Shown piece after piece: positions 36,608 to 61,765 of a stretch of DNA of 64,000 bases; the stretch's first letter is position 1, and each line of letters begins with the position of its first letter. A program made the translations under genes and the position numbers. Below the pieces are notes generated by a model, which was not told the origin of the DNA, did not search any database, and saw only the letters and a list, made by a program, of their open reading frames with translations. Source of the stretch: Escherichia phage Phi1; the sequence record EF437941; one strand, written 5' to 3'.

Positions 36608-37828
36608 TTATACTGCCATTTGAGCGGTGATCGCTGGATGGCTTTGATAGTTGTGAATTTTAAAGTCTTTCGGAGTCTTTGTCAATACCTCATCTAAAGA
36701 TTTAAATTCCGGCAACTCAATTGTTGGTTTATCAAACGGAACACGGCTTAACTGTTCCATAACTTGATCAAAATGGTTTTTGTAAATGTGAGTATCTCCA
36801 CCAGAGAAAATCAGTTCTCCTACCTCAAGATCACACATTTTCGCTATGATGTGAGTTAACAGCGCATAGCTGGCGACGTTAAAGGGCAAGCCCAAAAAGC
36901 TGTCTACGCTTCGCTGAAACCACATACAAGACAGTTTACCCTCATTGACATAGAATTGCACGAACGGATGACATACACCTAATACAGCATTATGTGTTCC
37001 TTGTACGTTCCACGAGTCAATAATGATCCGGCGATCCGTTGGATTGTTTTTAATTTGTTCAATCACGTTTTGTAACTGGTCTTCCCAAATCTTCGGGCGA
37101 TAGACATATTCTTCATCGTCTTTAGTGCTCGATGTGTCTACGTCCATACTAACAAAGATCGTGGTATCCGGTGCTAAAATGTCACCGCCCAGATAATCAC
37201 TATCAAGCAGATAATCGAAATAACCACTATCTACCCATTCCTGGAATCCCCACAAGCAATATGCATCATTAACAAAATTAGATTGAGTCTTCCAGTGGTC
37301 TGCTACCAGAATACAATCAAACTCTTCATAAATCATACCACGCCAGATAGCACATAAACGGTCTTCTGTGTCATTGGTTGGCGTAAAGTCTTCTACCCAC
37401 GGGTGTTTAAATGTATGTGTATATTTGCTCTTAACGCGCTTAATTTTGATTTCACCGTGTGGATGAATCGGTTTGCGTCGCCATGACATACCATACATAT
37501 TTCCGACATTATAACCATTGAATCGCAAAGGATTCTTTTCTTTCATATCAAGACAGTTGCCGCGCCAAATGTCGAAGGCTTCTTCGTCAAACTTACCGCG
37601 TGTAATTTCCTGTAAGCGACGGCGGTCGAGTGATCCCTCCATAAACCATAGCAACTCGCCAATTACAGAGGATGTAGCCATCTTTTTAGTGGTCAGTAAG
37701 GGGAAACCCTTGCTTAAATCAATTCGCATCTCTGCGCCGAATTTAGAGAGCGTACCTACCCCCGTTCGATCTTCACGAGGCCAGCCATTATCAAGAACAT
37801 CACGCAATAGTTTCAAATATTCTTTCAT
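36608..37828 (-). CDS. td: Thymidylate synthase with a large in-frame insertion
   Basis: ThyA motifs throughout (DRTGVGT, catalytic VCHPFVQFY, SVDSFLGLPFN, C-terminal ...MAV); 406 aa against ~286 aa in T4 owing to a ~128-aa insert after GMSWRR. Confidence 0.8.
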   Translation of the reverse strand: MKEYLKLLRDVLDNGWPREDRTGVGTLSKFGAEMRIDLSKGFPLLTTKKMATSSVIGELLWFMEGSLDRRRLQEITRGKFDEEAFDIWRGNCLDMKEKNPLRFNGYNVGNMYGMSWRRKPIHPHGEIKIKRVKSKYTHTFKHPWVEDFTPTNDTEDRLCAIWRGMIYEEFDCILVADHWKTQSNFVNDAYCLWGFQEWVDSGYFDYLLDSDYLGGDILAPDTTIFVSMDVDTSSTKDDEEYVYRPKIWEDQLQNVIEQIKNNPTDRRIIIDSWNVQGTHNAVLGVCHPFVQFYVNEGKLSCMWFQRSVDSFLGLPFNVASYALLTHIIAKMCDLEVGELIFSGGDTHIYKNHFDQVMEQLSRVPFDKPTIELPEFKSLDEVLTKTPKDFKIHNYQSHPAITAQMAV

Positions 37829-39120: not shown

Positions 39121-39149
39121 ATTATACACTGTTGCGTTACGCTGTCAAC
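39121..39149 (-). promoter_or_regulatory. Early promoter cassette (TTGACA-N16-TATAAT)
   Basis: Conserved -35, -10 and leader. Confidence 0.55.
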
Positions 39150-40519
39150 TCTTTTTCAAAAGATTTTACGATATACATGATAGTGCTCAATTCAGACGGC
39201 GCTACTGTTTCTGTGTAGCCATCCGGCATATCTTCTTTTGATATATAGGAAGTTTTATCTTTCATTGCTTCCTTGATCTTGTTCTCTAAGTCTAAGATCT
39301 TTTGACCGTCTTGTAAAGTCAATTCATAAAAGATCTCGTGATCGAACTTAGAAACACGAGATTGGTTTCTCATTCGTTCTTGTGTTGTTAAATTGGTTAT
39401 TCCAAACTTAACTGCCGTTAACGATTTATGTTTGTTTAGTTTCTGTACATAAAATGTTCCAGGTTTTATAGGTTGATAGCCCATTTTAGAACATTTTCTG
39501 CATCTTGTTCCAGATTGTACAAATTTACTATATGTTGGTGTATACTCATGACCCATTTCACATGTAATTTTTAATCTTGTTTCGACCCCAGAATAGCTAC
39601 CTCCACAAAATCCGTGAAATTTATTATTACCCAACACGGAAATTATATTTTTTATTGCATCGTCTTCGTTCCTGCGACCACTACATACTCCACATCTATA
39701 TCCACCATGAAAAAAATCACTAAACGCAATATTGTACTCGTGTCCATTATTACACGTCATATTAAGTCTCGTCCTTATATTTTCGTATTTTCCACCAACA
39801 AATCCATTGAAAATATGGTCTCCTTTGACCGAATTAATTCTATCTAACGCGGTAGTTTCTGTTAAACGCTTGGTCCCGCAGCATTCTGGGCATCTAGTTC
39901 CTTGAATAAAATGACCATACGTTGGTTGATATATGTGTCCATTATTACACTCTATTATTAACTTTGTTTTATGTGCACCAATGTAAGCACCACCAACAAA
40001 TCCATGAAATTTTTCATCGACCAGTGCGTTGATGATATTTTGTATAGCTTCATCATTCGATTTTTTGTGTTTATTATTGCAAATTGGACATGTATTGACA
40101 CCACCAATTATGCTGGAATAACATCTATGGTATTCGTGACCGTGTTCTTTACATTTTAATATAATTTTAGATGTCGATACATTTTTAAACTCTTCTGTCG
40201 TGAAACCCATAAACTCGCTATCTGTTAATGAAGATTTGATATCATCAATAACTTGTTCGGTTGATTTCTTTGCATTGGGTGCGCATAAACCACACTTGGT
40301 TTTTCTTCCAACTAGTGTTTTAATAGTTTTTGTGTGTGTTGTGTGTCCTTTATCGCACATTATACATACCCTTGTATCACATCCTTTCCAATCATCAACA
40401 AACCCGAGAAATTTGTAATTTATAGAGTGACAATATTCGCGTACTGTATTCTCGTGAATTGTCGGTTGTTTTTGTCTCTTACCAACGCAAATGTCCTTAG
40501 CAAAGTATGTTTTCATCAT
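39137..40519 (-). CDS. Five-fold zinc-finger repeat protein with T5orf172 (GIY-YIG-like) C-terminal domain
   Basis: Five repeats of roughly F.GF.GG.Y...(T/R)L...C..GH.Y...(F)..G..C..C; C-terminus GTFYVQK...AVKFGIT resembles T5orf172; start at the internal Met with GGAGGA RBS. Confidence 0.5.
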   Translation of the reverse strand: MMKTYFAKDICVGKRQKQPTIHENTVREYCHSINYKFLGFVDDWKGCDTRVCIMCDKGHTTHTKTIKTLVGRKTKCGLCAPNAKKSTEQVIDDIKSSLTDSEFMGFTTEEFKNVSTSKIILKCKEHGHEYHRCYSSIIGGVNTCPICNNKHKKSNDEAIQNIINALVDEKFHGFVGGAYIGAHKTKLIIECNNGHIYQPTYGHFIQGTRCPECCGTKRLTETTALDRINSVKGDHIFNGFVGGKYENIRTRLNMTCNNGHEYNIAFSDFFHGGYRCGVCSGRRNEDDAIKNIISVLGNNKFHGFCGGSYSGVETRLKITCEMGHEYTPTYSKFVQSGTRCRKCSKMGYQPIKPGTFYVQKLNKHKSLTAVKFGITNLTTQERMRNQSRVSKFDHEIFYELTLQDGQKILDLENKIKEAMKDKTSYISKEDMPDGYTETVAPSELSTIMYIVKSFEKELTA

Positions 40520-40546
40520 TTTTATCCTCCGTTGTTCGATGTGTGC

Positions 40547-40575
40547 ATGATACATGACCACATAAGCATGTCAAC
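40547..40575 (-). promoter_or_regulatory. Early promoter-like element (TTGACA with weak -10)
   Basis: -35 well conserved; -10 degenerate (TATCAT). Confidence 0.35.
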
Positions 40576-54629: not shown

Positions 54630-55286
54630 ATGCAAGTTTCTGAAAAAGGGAAAGACTTTGCTATCTCAAATGTCCTGCGCGCTATTTTCACAACTAAAAG
54701 CACGGAGTTGCTCGTACTTCGTGTTTTTGCTGCCGTCGTGTTGTCCATATTGGCATTTGTCGTTTATAGTAAAAACGAGTTATTTGCGCTTTATAAAGAG
54801 ACTCGTTATGAGACTTATGCTCACATTCTCCAGGTAGAGAAAGACCGCAATTTTGATAATGCAGCACAGGAGCAGTTACAGATAGTTCATGTGTCGGCTG
54901 ATGCCGATTTTTCTGCTGTTTTTAGTTTTCGTCCGAAAAACCTAAACTATTTTGTTGATTTGGTGGCATATGAAGGAAAGCTACCGCACACAATCGATGA
55001 AAAAAATTTAGGCGGATTCCCTATCAATAAAACGAGTGAAGAATATCGTAGGCATCTTTTAGGTAAATCCTATTTTACCGATAAAGATTTCCAGTATATT
55101 CCATCAAGAGAAAAGAAATTAGAGAATATCGATATAGGTTTCATGTATTCTTGTCCTATATTCAATCTCGATAATGTCTATTCTGGTAGTATCGCCATTT
55201 CATGGAAGAATAAACCGGATATTGACATTGAGAATTTAGATACTCTTTGCAATCAATCTGCCAGAATCCTCGGAAGGATTAGATAA
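54630..55286 (+). CDS. t: Holin
   Basis: 218 aa closely matching T4 holin T (QLQIVH.S.DADFSAV.SFRPKNLNYFVD..AYEGKLP, MYSCP.FNLDN). Confidence 0.9.
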   Translation: MQVSEKGKDFAISNVLRAIFTTKSTELLVLRVFAAVVLSILAFVVYSKNELFALYKETRYETYAHILQVEKDRNFDNAAQEQLQIVHVSADADFSAVFSFRPKNLNYFVDLVAYEGKLPHTIDEKNLGGFPINKTSEEYRRHLLGKSYFTDKDFQYIPSREKKLENIDIGFMYSCPIFNLDNVYSGSIAISWKNKPDIDIENLDTLCNQSARILGRIR

Positions 55287-57068: not shown

Positions 57069-57260
57069 TCACTTATCGTTAAGAAGTTCTAAAACTTTCT
57101 GCCGTACTTTGTCAATATTAGTTGATTCAAAAACTGTACGGTATCCCCAACTTTGACCGTATGATCGCGAGCAATCCCCATATCCCCATTGTTCAACCTG
57201 ATAGTATTCAAGGAATGGGTGCTGCCGAACTATGATACCATCGCGATTAAAAATTACCAT
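57069..57260 (-). CDS. Small hypothetical protein
   Basis: 63 aa with GAGGA RBS immediately after the triple repeat. Confidence 0.45.
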   Translation of the reverse strand: MVIFNRDGIIVRQHPFLEYYQVEQWGYGDCSRSYGQSWGYRTVFESTNIDKVRQKVLELLNDK

Positions 57261-57274
57261 AATATAATCCTCAC

Positions 57275-57355
57275 GTCAACAACTTATTTTCGGTTGTACT
57301 TGTCAACAACTTATTTTCGGTTGTACTTGTCAACAACTTATTTTCGGTTGTACTT
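57275..57355. repeat. Perfect 3 x 27-bp direct tandem repeat
   Basis: GTCAACAACTTATTTTCGGTTGTACTT three times; on the minus strand each unit is AAGTACAACCGAAAATAAGTTGTTGAC. Confidence 0.9.
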
Positions 57356-57619
57356 CTGCCACTTTCGGTAATACTGCTTGTAATATTGTTTAATGTTTGG
57401 TGGTTCGTCACTATACATGTTATCAACCATCATGTCAATAAGACCTTCCGGTGTTTGATAGTTACCCGCTCGAATGAGTTCCTTAATCAAAAGATCTTGT
57501 GTCGCTTTATACTTGACAATAACAACTGTCTTTTCTGCCTTTCCAATTCCGATCCGGTCGTTAGCTCTCATAGCATCCCACCAATCTTTTTTAAACTTCA
57601 TGTTGTTAAATTTCATCAT
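57338..57619 (-). CDS. Basic hypothetical protein whose 3-prime end lies in the tandem repeat
   Basis: 93 aa; the C-terminal KYNRK and stop codon are encoded by the first repeat unit encountered on the minus strand. Confidence 0.45.
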   Translation of the reverse strand: MMKFNNMKFKKDWWDAMRANDRIGIGKAEKTVVIVKYKATQDLLIKELIRAGNYQTPEGLIDMMVDNMYSDEPPNIKQYYKQYYRKWQKYNRK

Positions 57620-58420
57620 TTAACCCTTCTTATATTCGCAAACATATTGAGTACCATAATCATAGCTAATGCGACCTTTCTCGATTACTTCAAAGCGGAT
57701 TTCATCGTTTTCCCCTACCCACATTTTGTACTCGTTGAAGTATCCTGCTACATCCGGTTTGCTCATACCAACAACCATATTTTTATATTGTTTGCTGTGT
57801 GTCAGATTTGATTTAAACACTTCGCGCTCATCAACATATACGAAAGAAGACAATTCACCTTCGGTCATGGTCATTTTCAGCTTGCCGCCCTTGTTGCCAT
57901 AAGTAGAGTTGCCATACAATGGATCTTTGCGGCTGTCTGTTTCAATACCATCAATGATTTTCCATGTAAATTTTGCAATGCACTGATAAGTGATAGATCC
58001 AGAGATTTTCTCTTCTTTCTTCTGTTCTTCCACCACTTTTGCTTCGTGTTTCGGTTGTTCTTCTTCAACCTTCACAGAAGTCTCTGAATCGCTTTCTGAC
58101 GCGGTTTCTTCTTTAGGTAATACATTCATCAAGTTTTGGATTTGAGCGTTGTATACAGCCTCCAGTGGCTGAATCTGCCCGATATTGATCATTGTATCAC
58201 GAACAGTTTTATTCCAGTTGCGTTGCTCTTGTTTAAGAGACGGATCAATCTTAACAGCCTTAACATATACCTCATGAAGTTTAGAATCAAGTGCTGAGAT
58301 TGACTCATTAGCACAAATAAACTTCTCTGATTTGGTAGTAGCTTTAGCGCAATCAAAGGACGCAGCATTAGCACCGAAAGTAGTAGCAGAAAGAACGATA
58401 GCAGCGATAATGTTTTTCAT
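57620..58420 (-). CDS. Secreted DUF1311/LprI-like protein
   Basis: Signal peptide (MKNIIAAIVLSATTFGANA), then FDCAKA...E.FIC...LD..L...Y...EQR.W pattern, an acidic linker and a C-terminal domain. Confidence 0.45.
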   Translation of the reverse strand: MKNIIAAIVLSATTFGANAASFDCAKATTKSEKFICANESISALDSKLHEVYVKAVKIDPSLKQEQRNWNKTVRDTMINIGQIQPLEAVYNAQIQNLMNVLPKEETASESDSETSVKVEEEQPKHEAKVVEEQKKEEKISGSITYQCIAKFTWKIIDGIETDSRKDPLYGNSTYGNKGGKLKMTMTEGELSSFVYVDEREVFKSNLTHSKQYKNMVVGMSKPDVAGYFNEYKMWVGENDEIRFEVIEKGRISYDYGTQYVCEYKKG

Positions 58421-58456
58421 AATATATATTCCTCAGTGTTTTGTCTTGATGAGAGT

Positions 58457-58486
58457 ATCTTACTACTCCCTTAATCCGGTGTCAAC
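58457..58486 (-). promoter_or_regulatory. Early promoter cassette (TTGACA-N17-TAAGAT)
   Basis: Conserved cassette upstream of the secreted-protein gene. Confidence 0.45.
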
Positions 58487-58492
58487 CACTTT

Positions 58493-58648
58493 TTAAATTT
58501 CTTCTACAGTAAAGTCTTCAATGTTGTTGTGCTCGGCGAACGTTGCTAGACCAGCATCCCATGCATCATCCTCAGAGAAGAATACACCGTAACGTTCATA
58601 TCCTTTAGCGCCTTCAAATTTAACCATTAATTTGTGAGTATGTTTCAT
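58493..58648 (-). CDS. Small hypothetical protein (51 aa)
   Basis: Start at the internal Met (MKHTHKLMV...) with GGAG RBS; the track ORF runs through the promoter. Confidence 0.4.
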   Translation of the reverse strand: MKHTHKLMVKFEGAKGYERYGVFFSEDDAWDAGLATFAEHNNIEDFTVEEI

Positions 58649-58679
58649 TTTGATTCTCCTTCGTTGTCTTGATGAGTTT

Positions 58680-58709
58680 AGTATAGGGGATCGCCGATCC
58701 CCTGTCAAC
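58680..58709 (-). promoter_or_regulatory. Early promoter cassette (TTGACA-N17-TATACT) with GATC palindrome
   Basis: Spacer AGGGGATCGGCGATCCCCT. Confidence 0.55.
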
Positions 58710-58719
58710 TATTTTTAAA

Positions 58720-58980
58720 CTATTTTCGCCATTCACCGGAAACGATGAAGTTTGTAAAGTGATTGTGGTCCGTGATAATGTCATTAAGTACCATATGCGG
58801 ATATGCTTTAGTGTAATCACGTTTACGATCAGTCATCCAGCCAACGAAAGTCGGTGCAAAGTACGGCACACCGTCAGACGATGCCATATTAAACCCTTTA
58901 TCAGCCATAAATGCAGCCGCCCTAAGATTTTTAATTGAAGTAGTGCGACTAATTTCAAAAACTTTATCGGTAAAATTCAT
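58720..58980 (-). CDS. Hypothetical protein
   Basis: Start placed at the internal Met (MNFTDKV...). Confidence 0.4.
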   Translation of the reverse strand: MNFTDKVFEISRTTSIKNLRAAAFMADKGFNMASSDGVPYFAPTFVGWMTDRKRDYTKAYPHMVLNDIITDHNHFTNFIVSGEWRK

Positions 58981-58981
58981 T

Positions 58982-59194
58982 TTAATAAGCCCCCACTCGT
59001 GCATTAATGCGCATTTTCTGCATAGCCATGATCTGGTTTACTGCTTCTTCTTTGCGTTTTTGCGTGATAACGTGACCAGATTCCGCAAACTCTCCCGCAA
59101 CTTCTTCTACGATCTCGCGAACTTGAGAACGTCCAAAGATGCGGTTTCCTTCGTAGCTCATAAATTCAGTCACTACTTGCTCAATAGATTTCAT
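58982..59194 (-). CDS. Small hypothetical protein
   Basis: 70 aa with GGAG RBS downstream of a promoter cassette. Confidence 0.45.
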   Translation of the reverse strand: MKSIEQVVTEFMSYEGNRIFGRSQVREIVEEVAGEFAESGHVITQKRKEEAVNQIMAMQKMRINARVGAY

Positions 59195-60203: not shown

Positions 60204-60407
60204 TTATTTCCTCTCTGAAAATTCTTTCATCAAGCTGTCGATCTTTGCTCTGTGTTCTGGCGTGTTTGTCATCTCTGCTAATTTGCTCAGAGATTCACTG
60301 GTGATCCGGTTGGATTCTTCCAGTGTTTCAACGACAATTGGCACAATCTTTTTATTGTTGTACAGAAATGCAATATAACCGCCTTCTGGATATTCTTTCA
60401 TAATCAA
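60204..60407 (-). CDS. Small hypothetical protein
   Basis: 67 aa ORF overlapping the gene 52 start by 4 nt. Confidence 0.45.
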   Translation of the reverse strand: MIMKEYPEGGYIAFLYNNKKIVPIVVETLEESNRITSESLSKLAEMTNTPEHRAKIDSLMKEFSERK

Positions 60408-61765
60408 CCCTTCTTAAGTTCTTTAAGATCTTTCTTATATTCCTTCATTGCGGTCGTCTTTGTCCAATACTCATATTCACTATGATGTTTCTCGGCATCT
60501 TTGACCAGTCGATCATACTCTTCTTGGGTAACGCTGTACAATGGCATAGAAACTAGCTTATCGGCGTATGGACGTAGTTTTTCATGTCCATTGATGGATT
60601 GCATTACCTCGGCCTTTTTCTTTCCCTGTAGCTCGATTTCGCCCTTAATTACGCGATCGATAAATTCGGCTTTAGCCATTGCATAATTGTATGCTTCCAG
60701 CGTTTCCGCTTGCATCAATTCAATGCGTTTATCGACATACCCTAATCGGATTTCGACGAATCGACGGATCAGATCGCTCGCTTTCTCGAATACTTCTACT
60801 AAACCACGTTCGTTAACTACCACGATATTCTGGGCTACTAACTGTGTTAGTTTAAAATCCTTCATGATTTTCTCATGTCGAGCGGATTCATCTTCGCTTT
60901 TGAAATAATCGCGTTTCAGTGTTACTTCAAATCTGAATCCGTCCTTAGAGCAACGGTCATTATACGATACAATCAGATCTTTTTCTTCCAGTGCATCCAG
61001 TACCGCTACATATTCTTCACGGTCGAACTTATAAGGAACTTCTGATATTGTTAGTGTAGTCTTGCCGTTTAGTTCATATGTACCCTCAAGGATCACCCCA
61101 TCGCGATCATCTCGCGGGATAACTTTACCCGTGAATTTCGGGAATTGAACACTAGGTTCTTTATCCAGTTTTCCGGCAAGTGCTAGCTCTGTGCATTCAA
61201 TGAGGCTTTCCAGTGAATGTGGTAAAATGTCAGTTTTATACCCTGTAGCAATACCACTAATACCATTAGCCAATACCATTGGCACAACTGGCAAGTAGAA
61301 CGCTGGCGGGATGTGTTCCAGATCTTCGTGCTTAGGTGCGCAATTCATATCTTTATAGATTTTAAAGAAGTTTTCATGCACACGAGCAAAAATATAACGT
61401 GCTGCACCTGCTTTCTGGACTAAACGCGATCCGAAGTTACCTTGACCGTCAAGCAGTGGAGTATTATTGCTCCATGTATTCGCCATGAGTGATCCGGCTT
61501 CTACGGCATTAGTTTCGCCGTGGTGATACCCCAACTCAGCGACACCAGATCCAATATCTGCCATCTTACGGAATTTCTTACGGTCGCCTTTACTCTTTTG
61601 CAAAGCACATTCCATAACAAAGCGTTGCACTGGTTTAAGCCCATCCACTAATTGAGGAATCCCGCGTTCCTCGGCAGAATAGATCGCATATTCCTTAGCT
61701 TCATTATGTACAATGCTTTCAAGGCTGCGGTAAGTAACTGATTTATTCATCTTCACCTCATACAC
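60404..61765 (-). CDS. 52: DNA topoisomerase II medium subunit gp52
   Basis: 453 aa (T4 gp52 is 442 aa) with a GyrA-like N-terminus (ERGIPQLVDGLKPVQR) and active-site region. Confidence 0.85.
   Translation of the reverse strand: MYEVKMNKSVTYRSLESIVHNEAKEYAIYSAEERGIPQLVDGLKPVQRFVMECALQKSKGDRKKFRKMADIGSGVAELGYHHGETNAVEAGSLMANTWSNNTPLLDGQGNFGSRLVQKAGAARYIFARVHENFFKIYKDMNCAPKHEDLEHIPPAFYLPVVPMVLANGISGIATGYKTDILPHSLESLIECTELALAGKLDKEPSVQFPKFTGKVIPRDDRDGVILEGTYELNGKTTLTISEVPYKFDREEYVAVLDALEEKDLIVSYNDRCSKDGFRFEVTLKRDYFKSEDESARHEKIMKDFKLTQLVAQNIVVVNERGLVEVFEKASDLIRRFVEIRLGYVDKRIELMQAETLEAYNYAMAKAEFIDRVIKGEIELQGKKKAEVMQSINGHEKLRPYADKLVSMPLYSVTQEEYDRLVKDAEKHHSEYEYWTKTTAMKEYKKDLKELKKG

Follow-up and report, generated by a model that had tools for sequence, protein, structure and literature searches.

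A predicted periplasmic DUF1311 protein of Escherichia phage Phi1 with an exchangeable C-terminal domain and related copies in E. coli prophages

Introduction

A 64,000-nucleotide (nt) stretch of Escherichia phage Phi1 DNA (EF437941) was analyzed; this stretch is called the window, and all coordinates are positions in it. The open reading frame (ORF) at 57620..58420 on the minus strand starts with ATG and encodes a protein of 266 amino acids (aa) that was found to be a mosaic. Its N-terminal half, with a predicted signal peptide and a DUF1311/LprI domain, is almost invariant among homologs, and its C-terminal half appears to be an exchangeable beta-barrel joined to the constant part within an acidic linker. 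Moreover, intact copies of the gene reside in E. coli prophages, and at least some of these came from a virulent phage. The DUF1311 identification is not new, as RB49ORF260c was already reported with a weak DUF1311 match (Nolan et al. 2006, PMC1524935); what is new is the mosaic makeup of the gene and its passage from a virulent to a temperate phage. Regarding function, the protein may exclude competing phages at the cell envelope in a manner resembling T4 Spackle, and a probability of roughly 35% was assigned to this reading.

Mosaic structure and allele classes of the gene

The region 57300–58700 matched 57 phage records, all of which were RB49-like Krischviruses (Straboviridae); among them, the Escherichia phages E26 and GEC-3S showed 98% identity. 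The window belongs to a Krischvirus of the RB49/GEC-3S kind. With the full-length protein as the query, homologs in 21 clusters were obtained from 5.8 billion proteins. A query with the N-terminal 105 residues alone returned none, which was ascribed to a limitation of the word index and was not treated as evidence. In the alignment of the homologs, residues 1–105 were almost invariant and the barrel was strongly diverged. When the DNA was compared with RB49, JSE, ECD7, and GEC-3S in sliding windows, the flanks and codons 1–120 showed 93–100% identity. The identity broke at codons ~121–140, collapsed to noise level over codons ~125–266, and was back to at least 97% at 57260.

Synonymous divergence (dS), determined by the Nei–Gojobori method, was 0.09–0.28 for the 5' half in every comparison, whereas it was saturated between barrels of different classes (at least 1.6 or not computable). 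The low dS of the constant half together with the saturated dS of the barrel points to old alleles that were exchanged by recombination in the linker, not to rapid point mutation. The barrel exists as at least three ancient allele classes joined within the linker. Class A comprises the window, GEC-3S, and some prophages; class B comprises RB49, ECD7, and others; class C comprises JSE and most of the E. coli copies. By profile–profile comparison, classes A and B were homologous with a probability of 99.6%, and the class C barrel showed no detectable similarity to either. AlphaFold modelled the class C barrel as an all-beta domain of similar size with two bracketing cysteines. This cassette-like polymorphism, the most unusual feature of the gene, had been missed in the initial annotation.

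Between close alleles of one class, the Nei–Gojobori omega was 0.24–0.34. A signal of positive selection was not obtainable, given these values within classes and the saturated dS between classes. The idea that the variability is confined to one end of the barrel was also rejected, as it was spread over strands and loops. The Marfavirus homologs (250 aa, phrog_4675; 24 Klebsiella phages) were 82–100% identical over their full length; thus, the cassette polymorphism is specific to the pool of E. coli phages and prophages.

Capture by E. coli prophages

An intact gene copy, one and chromosomal, was present in 26 of 5,426 complete E. coli genomes. The first 380–420 nt of these copies were 93–96% identical to the window gene, and the matches stopped in the linker, at codon 124, 127, or 139. 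The genomic context was drawn from four E. coli loci, where the gene was the last one of a prophage that carries a lambda-type terminase and is inserted into hicB; related viral contigs measured 23–36 kb. The insertion leaves hicB annotated as truncated, with its C-terminus missing, and hicA intact (loci L004 8091–8402 and L005 5076–5384).

In the prophage copies, homology to Krischvirus began at the ATG, and the upstream region was the prophage's own, without the Krischvirus promoter-like site. Downstream of the class A' and B' copies followed ~75 nt corresponding to the first 22 codons (MKFNSMKITKDWWDAMKANH...) of the 93-aa gene that abuts the phage gene. This remnant stopped at an identical junction in the A' and B' copies, and the class C prophage copies were without it. 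The 93-aa gene occurs in Krischvirus only (57 records). Therefore, at least the A' and B' prophage alleles came from a virulent Krischvirus-like phage, and the presence of the same junctions with different barrels indicates later replacement of the cassette by homologous recombination. G+C content was uninformative as a marker of the transfer direction, as the prophage end also has ~38% G+C. The protein seems not to depend on any other gene of Krischvirus.

Export signal and domain architecture

The initial annotation had described a cleavable signal peptide followed by a DUF1311 domain, an acidic linker, and a C-terminal domain, and all of these were recovered (Table 1). The signal peptide was called by rule, using hydropathy and the AXA rule. 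It has one N-terminal Lys and an A-N-A cleavage motif, and its hydrophobic core reaches a Kyte–Doolittle 11-residue mean of 2.25; this combination fits a signal-peptidase-I substrate. The call was backed by disorder over residues 1–20 in the AlphaFold 2 (AF2) model and by near-invariance among the homologs. A lipobox of the form L-[AS]-[GA]-C was not found in the protein, and the first Cys lies at +5 of the predicted mature chain in the context SFDC. The protein is very probably exported to the periplasm as a soluble, predicted signal-peptidase-I substrate.

Pfam PF07007 (LprI) was matched over residues 24–76 with 25.3 bits against a gathering cut-off of 22 (E=2.1e-5). The match was partial, with profile positions 1–71 of 106 aligned, and 17 of the 18 homologs likewise matched PF07007. 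Cys24, Cys36, and the motif C..A....E..IC...L..LD..L were invariant across the homolog alignment; conserved cysteines are a trait of the DUF1311/LprI family (PMC7933661). The modelled fold of the N-terminal domain is helical and superposes on the DUF1311 structure of P. putida PP0307 (PDB 3gi7). With a score above the cut-off, the motif, the cysteine pair, and the helical fold, the N-terminal part is a bona fide DUF1311/LprI domain. Relatives of this domain with 28–57% identity occur in more than 500 proteobacterial species, a distribution consistent with an ultimately bacterial origin. In UniProt, the RB49 protein is named 'Lysozyme inhibitor LprI-like N-terminal domain-containing protein', and the E. 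coli copies appear in RefSeq as 'lysozyme inhibitor LprI family protein'. The protein matched PHROGs 14799, 4675, and 33858 only and was assigned to phrog_14799, whose function is unknown.

P0021, a distant homolog of 330 aa encoded on a 152.8-kb contig, is 40% identical in the N-terminal domain; it is extended at the N-terminus, and its C-terminal region is Lys/Glu-rich, unlike the beta-barrel. This suggests that the DUF1311 head may be combined with other kinds of tail domains in other large phages.

The linker, residues 104–138, has a net charge of -7 (12 Glu, 1 Asp) and a predicted local distance difference test score (pLDDT) below 50. Residues ~139–266 were modelled by AF2 as all-beta with a pLDDT of ~90, and the barrel is probably closed by a disulfide. 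MliC (PF09864) was not matched by the window protein at E up to 10 or among 18 variants at E up to 1. No family for the C-terminal domain emerged when Pfam, NCBIfam, PADLOC, and the sequences of the Protein Data Bank were searched, and phmmer with this domain against 1.8 billion representative proteins returned its own cluster only. As the sequence searches were negative, MliC, PliC, or any other named family was rejected for this domain at the sequence level. Fold searches retrieved generic 8-stranded barrels only, the best structural neighbors being lipocalins, lipid-binding proteins, the NHBA C-domain, TbpB handle domains, and Cap15-type barrels. MliC and PliC domains are likewise 8-stranded barrels. 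No paralog of the barrel was found in RB49 1–80 kb or in the window.

Table 1. Features of the gene and its immediate surroundings (positions in the window)
Feature	Position	Strand	Basis or remark
Candidate sigma-70-type (T4 early-like) promoter, TTGACA-17 nt-TAAGAT	58457..58485	-	consensus scan, 10/12 positions; A/T-rich stretch precedes
Shine-Dalgarno GAGGA, 9 nt 5' of ATG	58430..58434	-	direct sequence reading
Predicted Sec signal peptide MKNIIAAIVLSATTFGANA, codons 1–19, predicted cleavage ANA/A	58364..58420	-	hydropathy and AXA rule, pLDDT ~30
DUF1311/LprI helical domain, codons 20–103, four helices, constant module	58112..58363	-	Cys24, Cys36 invariant
Acidic Glu/Lys/Pro-rich disordered linker, codons 104–138, variable length	58007..58111	-	charge, pLDDT, alignment indels
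Variable C-terminal 8-stranded all-beta (barrel-like) domain, codons 139–266, bracketed by Cys147 and Cys261	57623..58006	-	
Stop codon	57620-57622	-	
Downstream 93-aa gene, phrog_15915, no signal peptide, part of polymorphic tract	57338..57619	-	start abuts stop (TAAATG)

Proposed function

The proposed mechanism is as follows. The protein would be a soluble periplasmic protein, probably made early, exported through Sec and cleaved by signal peptidase I. In the mature form, a flexible acidic linker would connect the constant DUF1311 domain, which has four helices, to an exchangeable 8-stranded beta-barrel. It would bind and neutralize proteins that enter the periplasm from outside, analogous to T4 Spackle. 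The DUF1311 domain would neutralize incoming peptidoglycan glycosidases, its likely targets being tail-spike lysozyme of the gp5 type, brought in by superinfecting T-even-like phages, and perhaps also muramidase effectors. Blocking such targets would prevent penetration of the tail tube and lysis from without and would leave the phage's own peptidase-based lysis unaffected. More speculatively, the barrel would add a second, specificity-determining binding module. Its ancient classes would be shuffled by linker recombination, as expected for a determinant that faces polymorphic opponents. A temperate phage has captured the gene, and there the protein would protect the lysogen.

Other DUF1311 proteins are repeatedly connected with cell-wall hydrolases of the periplasm. 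LprI-domain proteins were predicted as immunity partners of LysM/transglycosylase and lysozyme-like effectors (PMC8867033; PMC9796082). ScwA affects how much of the lytic transglycosylase MltD is present (PMC7933661), and LprI as a whole protein is an inhibitor of lysozyme (cited in PMC7933661). In enterohemorrhagic E. coli, the Etsi4/Etse4 pair provides experimental support for DUF1311 immunity against a periplasm-acting type VI secretion system (T6SS) cell-wall effector (PMC12981562), and a T6SS immunity role of DUF1311 was predicted in Salmonella Dublin and Pantoea. Because single-domain DUF1311 proteins recur as immunity to T6SS cell-wall effectors, DUF1311 is, by analogy, credible as a module that binds peptidoglycan hydrolases.

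Spackle and lysozymes were searched in RB49 1–80 kb and the window (~145 kb in all). Spackle is not annotated in RB49, and the ORFs at its syntenic 41–61 locus did not match the Spackle PHROG (phrog_1586). Searches by tblastn with T4-type and Klebsiella-phage Spackle queries gave nothing significant, and the window protein itself did not match phrog_1586. As no Spackle homolog was found in the examined Krischvirus sequence, the niche may be open. The only Phage_lysozyme (glycoside hydrolase family 24) domain in the searched sequence was that of gp5. The candidate endolysin ORF102c (RB49 AY343333 54719–55108; locus L033 24719–25108) was assigned to Peptidase_M15_4 (E 4.4e-12) and is not a T4 e-type lysozyme. 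Since this candidate is a peptidase, a periplasmic muramidase inhibitor would spare the phage's own lysis.

The genomic distribution also fits exclusion of competing phages, as the gene appears to act alone and would be useful to a virulent phage and to a lysogen, and a terminal, separately promoted prophage gene fits an exclusion or defense function. Among the Krischvirus genomes listed, gp5 was at least 98.8% identical whatever the barrel class (57 genome records carry gp5). This invariance parallels the constant DUF1311 module, and within the genus gp5 is thereby ruled out as a partner for the variable one. The gp38 adhesin types were mixed with the barrel types: barrel A occurs with an RB49-like gp38 in ELT3 and AV108 and with the other gp38 type in GEC-3S and E26. 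The mixing speaks against a receptor mask tailored to the receptor that the phage itself uses.

Several observations weigh against exclusion by lysozyme neutralization. The initial annotation had linked the protein to LprI-type lysozyme inhibitors; the DUF1311 domain behind this link scored above the Pfam cut-off, but the inhibitor label is a transferred name, and DUF1311 alone was never shown to inhibit lysozyme. For M. tuberculosis LprI, the inhibitory effect on lysozyme is ascribed to its second domain, MliC (PMC7933661). The C-terminal domain of the phage protein has no detectable MliC match at the sequence level. Furthermore, Salmonella ScwA, an LprI-domain protein, confers no lysozyme resistance (PMC7933661). 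Spackle and an LprI-domain protein are present side by side in PWKp16, a T4-like phage of Klebsiella, and likewise in Marfavirus phages; because both occur in PWKp16, the two are not simple substitutes for each other. A cis partner that co-varies with the barrel was not identified, as gp5 is invariant and gp38 is mixed, and none of the PADLOC defense models matched. In addition, the domain-wide omega of 0.24–0.34 denotes purifying selection without an obvious arms-race signature, Marfavirus shows no barrel polymorphism, and early expression is deduced solely from a consensus promoter.

An extension of the exclusion reading was also considered, more tentatively still. The prophage may have domesticated the exclusion gene of a virulent phage and turned it against that same phage family in defense of its lysogen. 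The gene would be updated by recombination with phages that infect the cell, via the constant half of ~400 nt and the remnant of 75 nt. The system would then be modular, with the barrel cassette traded between virulent and temperate phages.

Alternatively, the protein could be an orphan immunity protein against peptidoglycan hydrolases that neighboring bacteria deliver to the periplasm by T6SS or as bacteriocins, with the barrel matched to polymorphic effectors and the infected cell or lysogen kept alive. The T6SS immunity roles of DUF1311/LprI proteins, whether experimental (Etsi4) or predicted, speak for it. Mobile elements frequently carry orphan immunity genes, the prophage copy is placed like cargo at the prophage end, and barrel polymorphism suits polymorphic effector families. 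However, no effector or T6SS gene adjoins the gene in the phage or prophage, where its neighbors are small, functionally unassigned phage ORFs or the hicB end, and the known DUF1311 immunity proteins are single-domain, for example of 146 aa. That a virulent phage of short latent period would gain from it is also doubtful, yet 57 phage records, as many as the Krischvirus genomes listed, carry the gene. This explanation was considered unlikely.

A further explanation is based on Salmonella ScwA, a periplasmic LprI-domain protein with essential disulfides that raises the level of the lytic transglycosylase MltD and lyses cells when overproduced (PMC7933661). By analogy, the DUF1311 domain of the phage protein might bind or stabilize a host lytic transglycosylase such as MltD and remodel or stabilize the sacculus, thereby tuning lysis or resisting premature lysis. 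A constant module would suit a conserved host target, and the gene lies 2.3 kb from holin t. Nevertheless, this explanation leaves the ancient barrel polymorphism and the exchange between phages unaccounted for and gives no clear reason for retention in prophages. RB49 also already has the lysis-timing gene rI. A ScwA-like role was thus held to be improbable. A lysis-timing role, which the initial annotation had offered as an option, or an antiholin role was set aside as the primary function because RB49 encodes this canonical lysis-timing gene.

The barrel might instead carry the main activity, with DUF1311 as a scaffold. It could bind a ligand in the manner of a lipocalin (a lipid, lipopolysaccharide, or a peptidoglycan fragment), block a receptor or porin from its periplasmic face, or act in counter-defense against a host system that senses the periplasm. 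The nearest folds named above would agree with ligand binding, and stand-alone secreted or lipoprotein barrels with a similar fold are encoded by other phages. The mixing of gp38 and barrel types bears on the receptor-blocking version. Only a small chance was given to this group of explanations.

Finally, the layout is superficially similar to that of a polymorphic toxin, in which the constant N-terminus would serve delivery, the variable C-terminus would be the toxin, and the 93-aa gene would provide immunity. The abutting downstream gene is also polymorphic, but this explanation was largely refuted: the 93-aa alleles do not track the barrel type, the 93-aa product is without a signal peptide, no toxin family was matched, and prophages keep a 22-codon remnant or nothing of the 93-aa gene with the barrel gene intact in 26 genomes.

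Downstream 93-aa gene

The 93-aa gene showed 63–80% nt identity to RB49, JSE, and ECD7, compared with at least 97% in the flanks. It has two allelic forms, and the same form occurs in JSE (type C' barrel), SSG23 (type B), and the window (type A). This lack of tracking, together with the dispensability of the gene in prophages, is what refutes the toxin–immunity explanation. A perfect tandem repeat of 27 nt x 3 lies at 57275-57355 (GTCAACAACTTATTTTCGGTTGTACTT on the plus strand). The repeat takes in the final five codons of the 93-aa gene, its stop codon, and the GTTGTTGAC that follows, and only a single copy is present in GEC-3S, RB49, JSE, and ECD7. At the edge of the polymorphic tract, the triple repeat suggests slippage or duplication of recent date.

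Locus and upstream signals

The gene sits within a series of small leftward genes between topoisomerase gene 52 (60404-61765) and holin t (54630-55286). The counterpart of this interval in T4 holds early genes such as asiA and motA. The initial annotation placed the element at 57620-58486; its upper coordinate takes in the promoter-like site, and that of the ORF itself is 58420. The early-type promoter suggested there was located as a sigma-70-type site in the early-gene block (Table 1). This promoter-like site was kept in RB49, JSE, and the metagenomic Krischvirus L013, and the GEC-3S record HE978309 annotates a promoter there. Across a 2.2-kb region, 6 consensus promoter matches were found against 6.5 expected by chance, that is, without excess. 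Because this count equals the chance expectation, early timing is inferred from position, conservation, and analogy.

Several small genes of the 52–t interval have their own TTGACA-type promoter-like site. An ORF of 94 aa (58720-59004, minus strand; phrog_19692) is an insertion relative to RB49, JSE, ECD7, and GEC-3S. Upstream of the gene, GEC-3S differs across a 71-aa ORF (58493-58708, minus strand; 0% aligned). Together with the mosaic gene, these differences indicate that the interval is prone to insertions and replacements.

Two other ORFs were noted elsewhere in the window. A thymidylate-synthase-like ORF (36608-37828, minus strand; 406 aa) has an apparent internal insertion and is ~120 residues longer than T4 Td. 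An ORF of 474 aa (39137-40561, minus strand) lies downstream of gene 32 and before a frd-like gene. A unit of ~55 residues with paired CxxC motifs (...KF.GF.GG.Y.G..T.L...C..GH.Y...Y..F..G..C..C...) recurs about five times in its translation, and the ORF may encode a zinc-ribbon repeat protein or a protein of a mobile element.

Significance and comparison with known systems

Only for a few proteins, such as Imm and Spackle, is the molecular basis of superinfection exclusion by T-even phages understood. If the exclusion reading is true, a secreted DUF1311 protein would be a second, unrelated solution beside Spackle, and the large DUF1311 family would gain a testable phage-related function. The combination of DUF1311 and a barrel would then constitute a previously undescribed two-module mechanism of phage exclusion at the envelope. 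Whatever the function, the mosaic is valuable as a record of recent DNA flow from a strictly virulent T4-like phage to a temperate prophage, after which alleles were replaced at fixed junctions. Krischviruses are therapeutic candidates against E. coli, and the barrel is marked as a candidate specificity module for host-range and phage-therapy work.

Compared with T4 Spackle, the periplasmic inhibitor of the gp5 tail lysozyme, the protein is likewise small, predicted to be Sec-exported, probably early, and equipped with Cys pairs suited to disulfides. Spackle (gene 61.3) is a helical bundle (PMC7677548), as is the DUF1311 module. In contrast, the two proteins have no sequence relationship, their genes occupy different genome positions, and the phage Phi1 protein has two domains, one of which is a variable barrel.

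With the DUF1311 family, represented by PP0307 (3gi7), Etsi4, and ScwA, the protein shares the Cys pair, the motif, and the helical fold, and its predicted Sec export is as in Etsi4 and ScwA. It differs from them in its acidic linker and family-specific beta-barrel and in that only 71 of 106 profile positions align. Moreover, the gene lies in a virulent phage with its own promoter-like site and without an adjoining effector. M. tuberculosis LprI has the same order of export signal, DUF1311 domain, and C-terminal domain, whereas the phage protein is without a lipobox and its C-terminal domain is without an MliC sequence match.

Like prophage 'moron' exclusion genes and the receptor-blocking lipoproteins T5 Llp and Cor, the gene is a single accessory gene with a predicted action on the envelope; its prophage copy has an upstream region of its own and lies at the prophage end. 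Unlike Llp and Cor, the phage protein is not a lipoprotein, and its barrel type is independent of the phage's own adhesin type. An unusual trait is the origin of the prophage alleles, of which at least A' and B' derive from a virulent T4-like phage.

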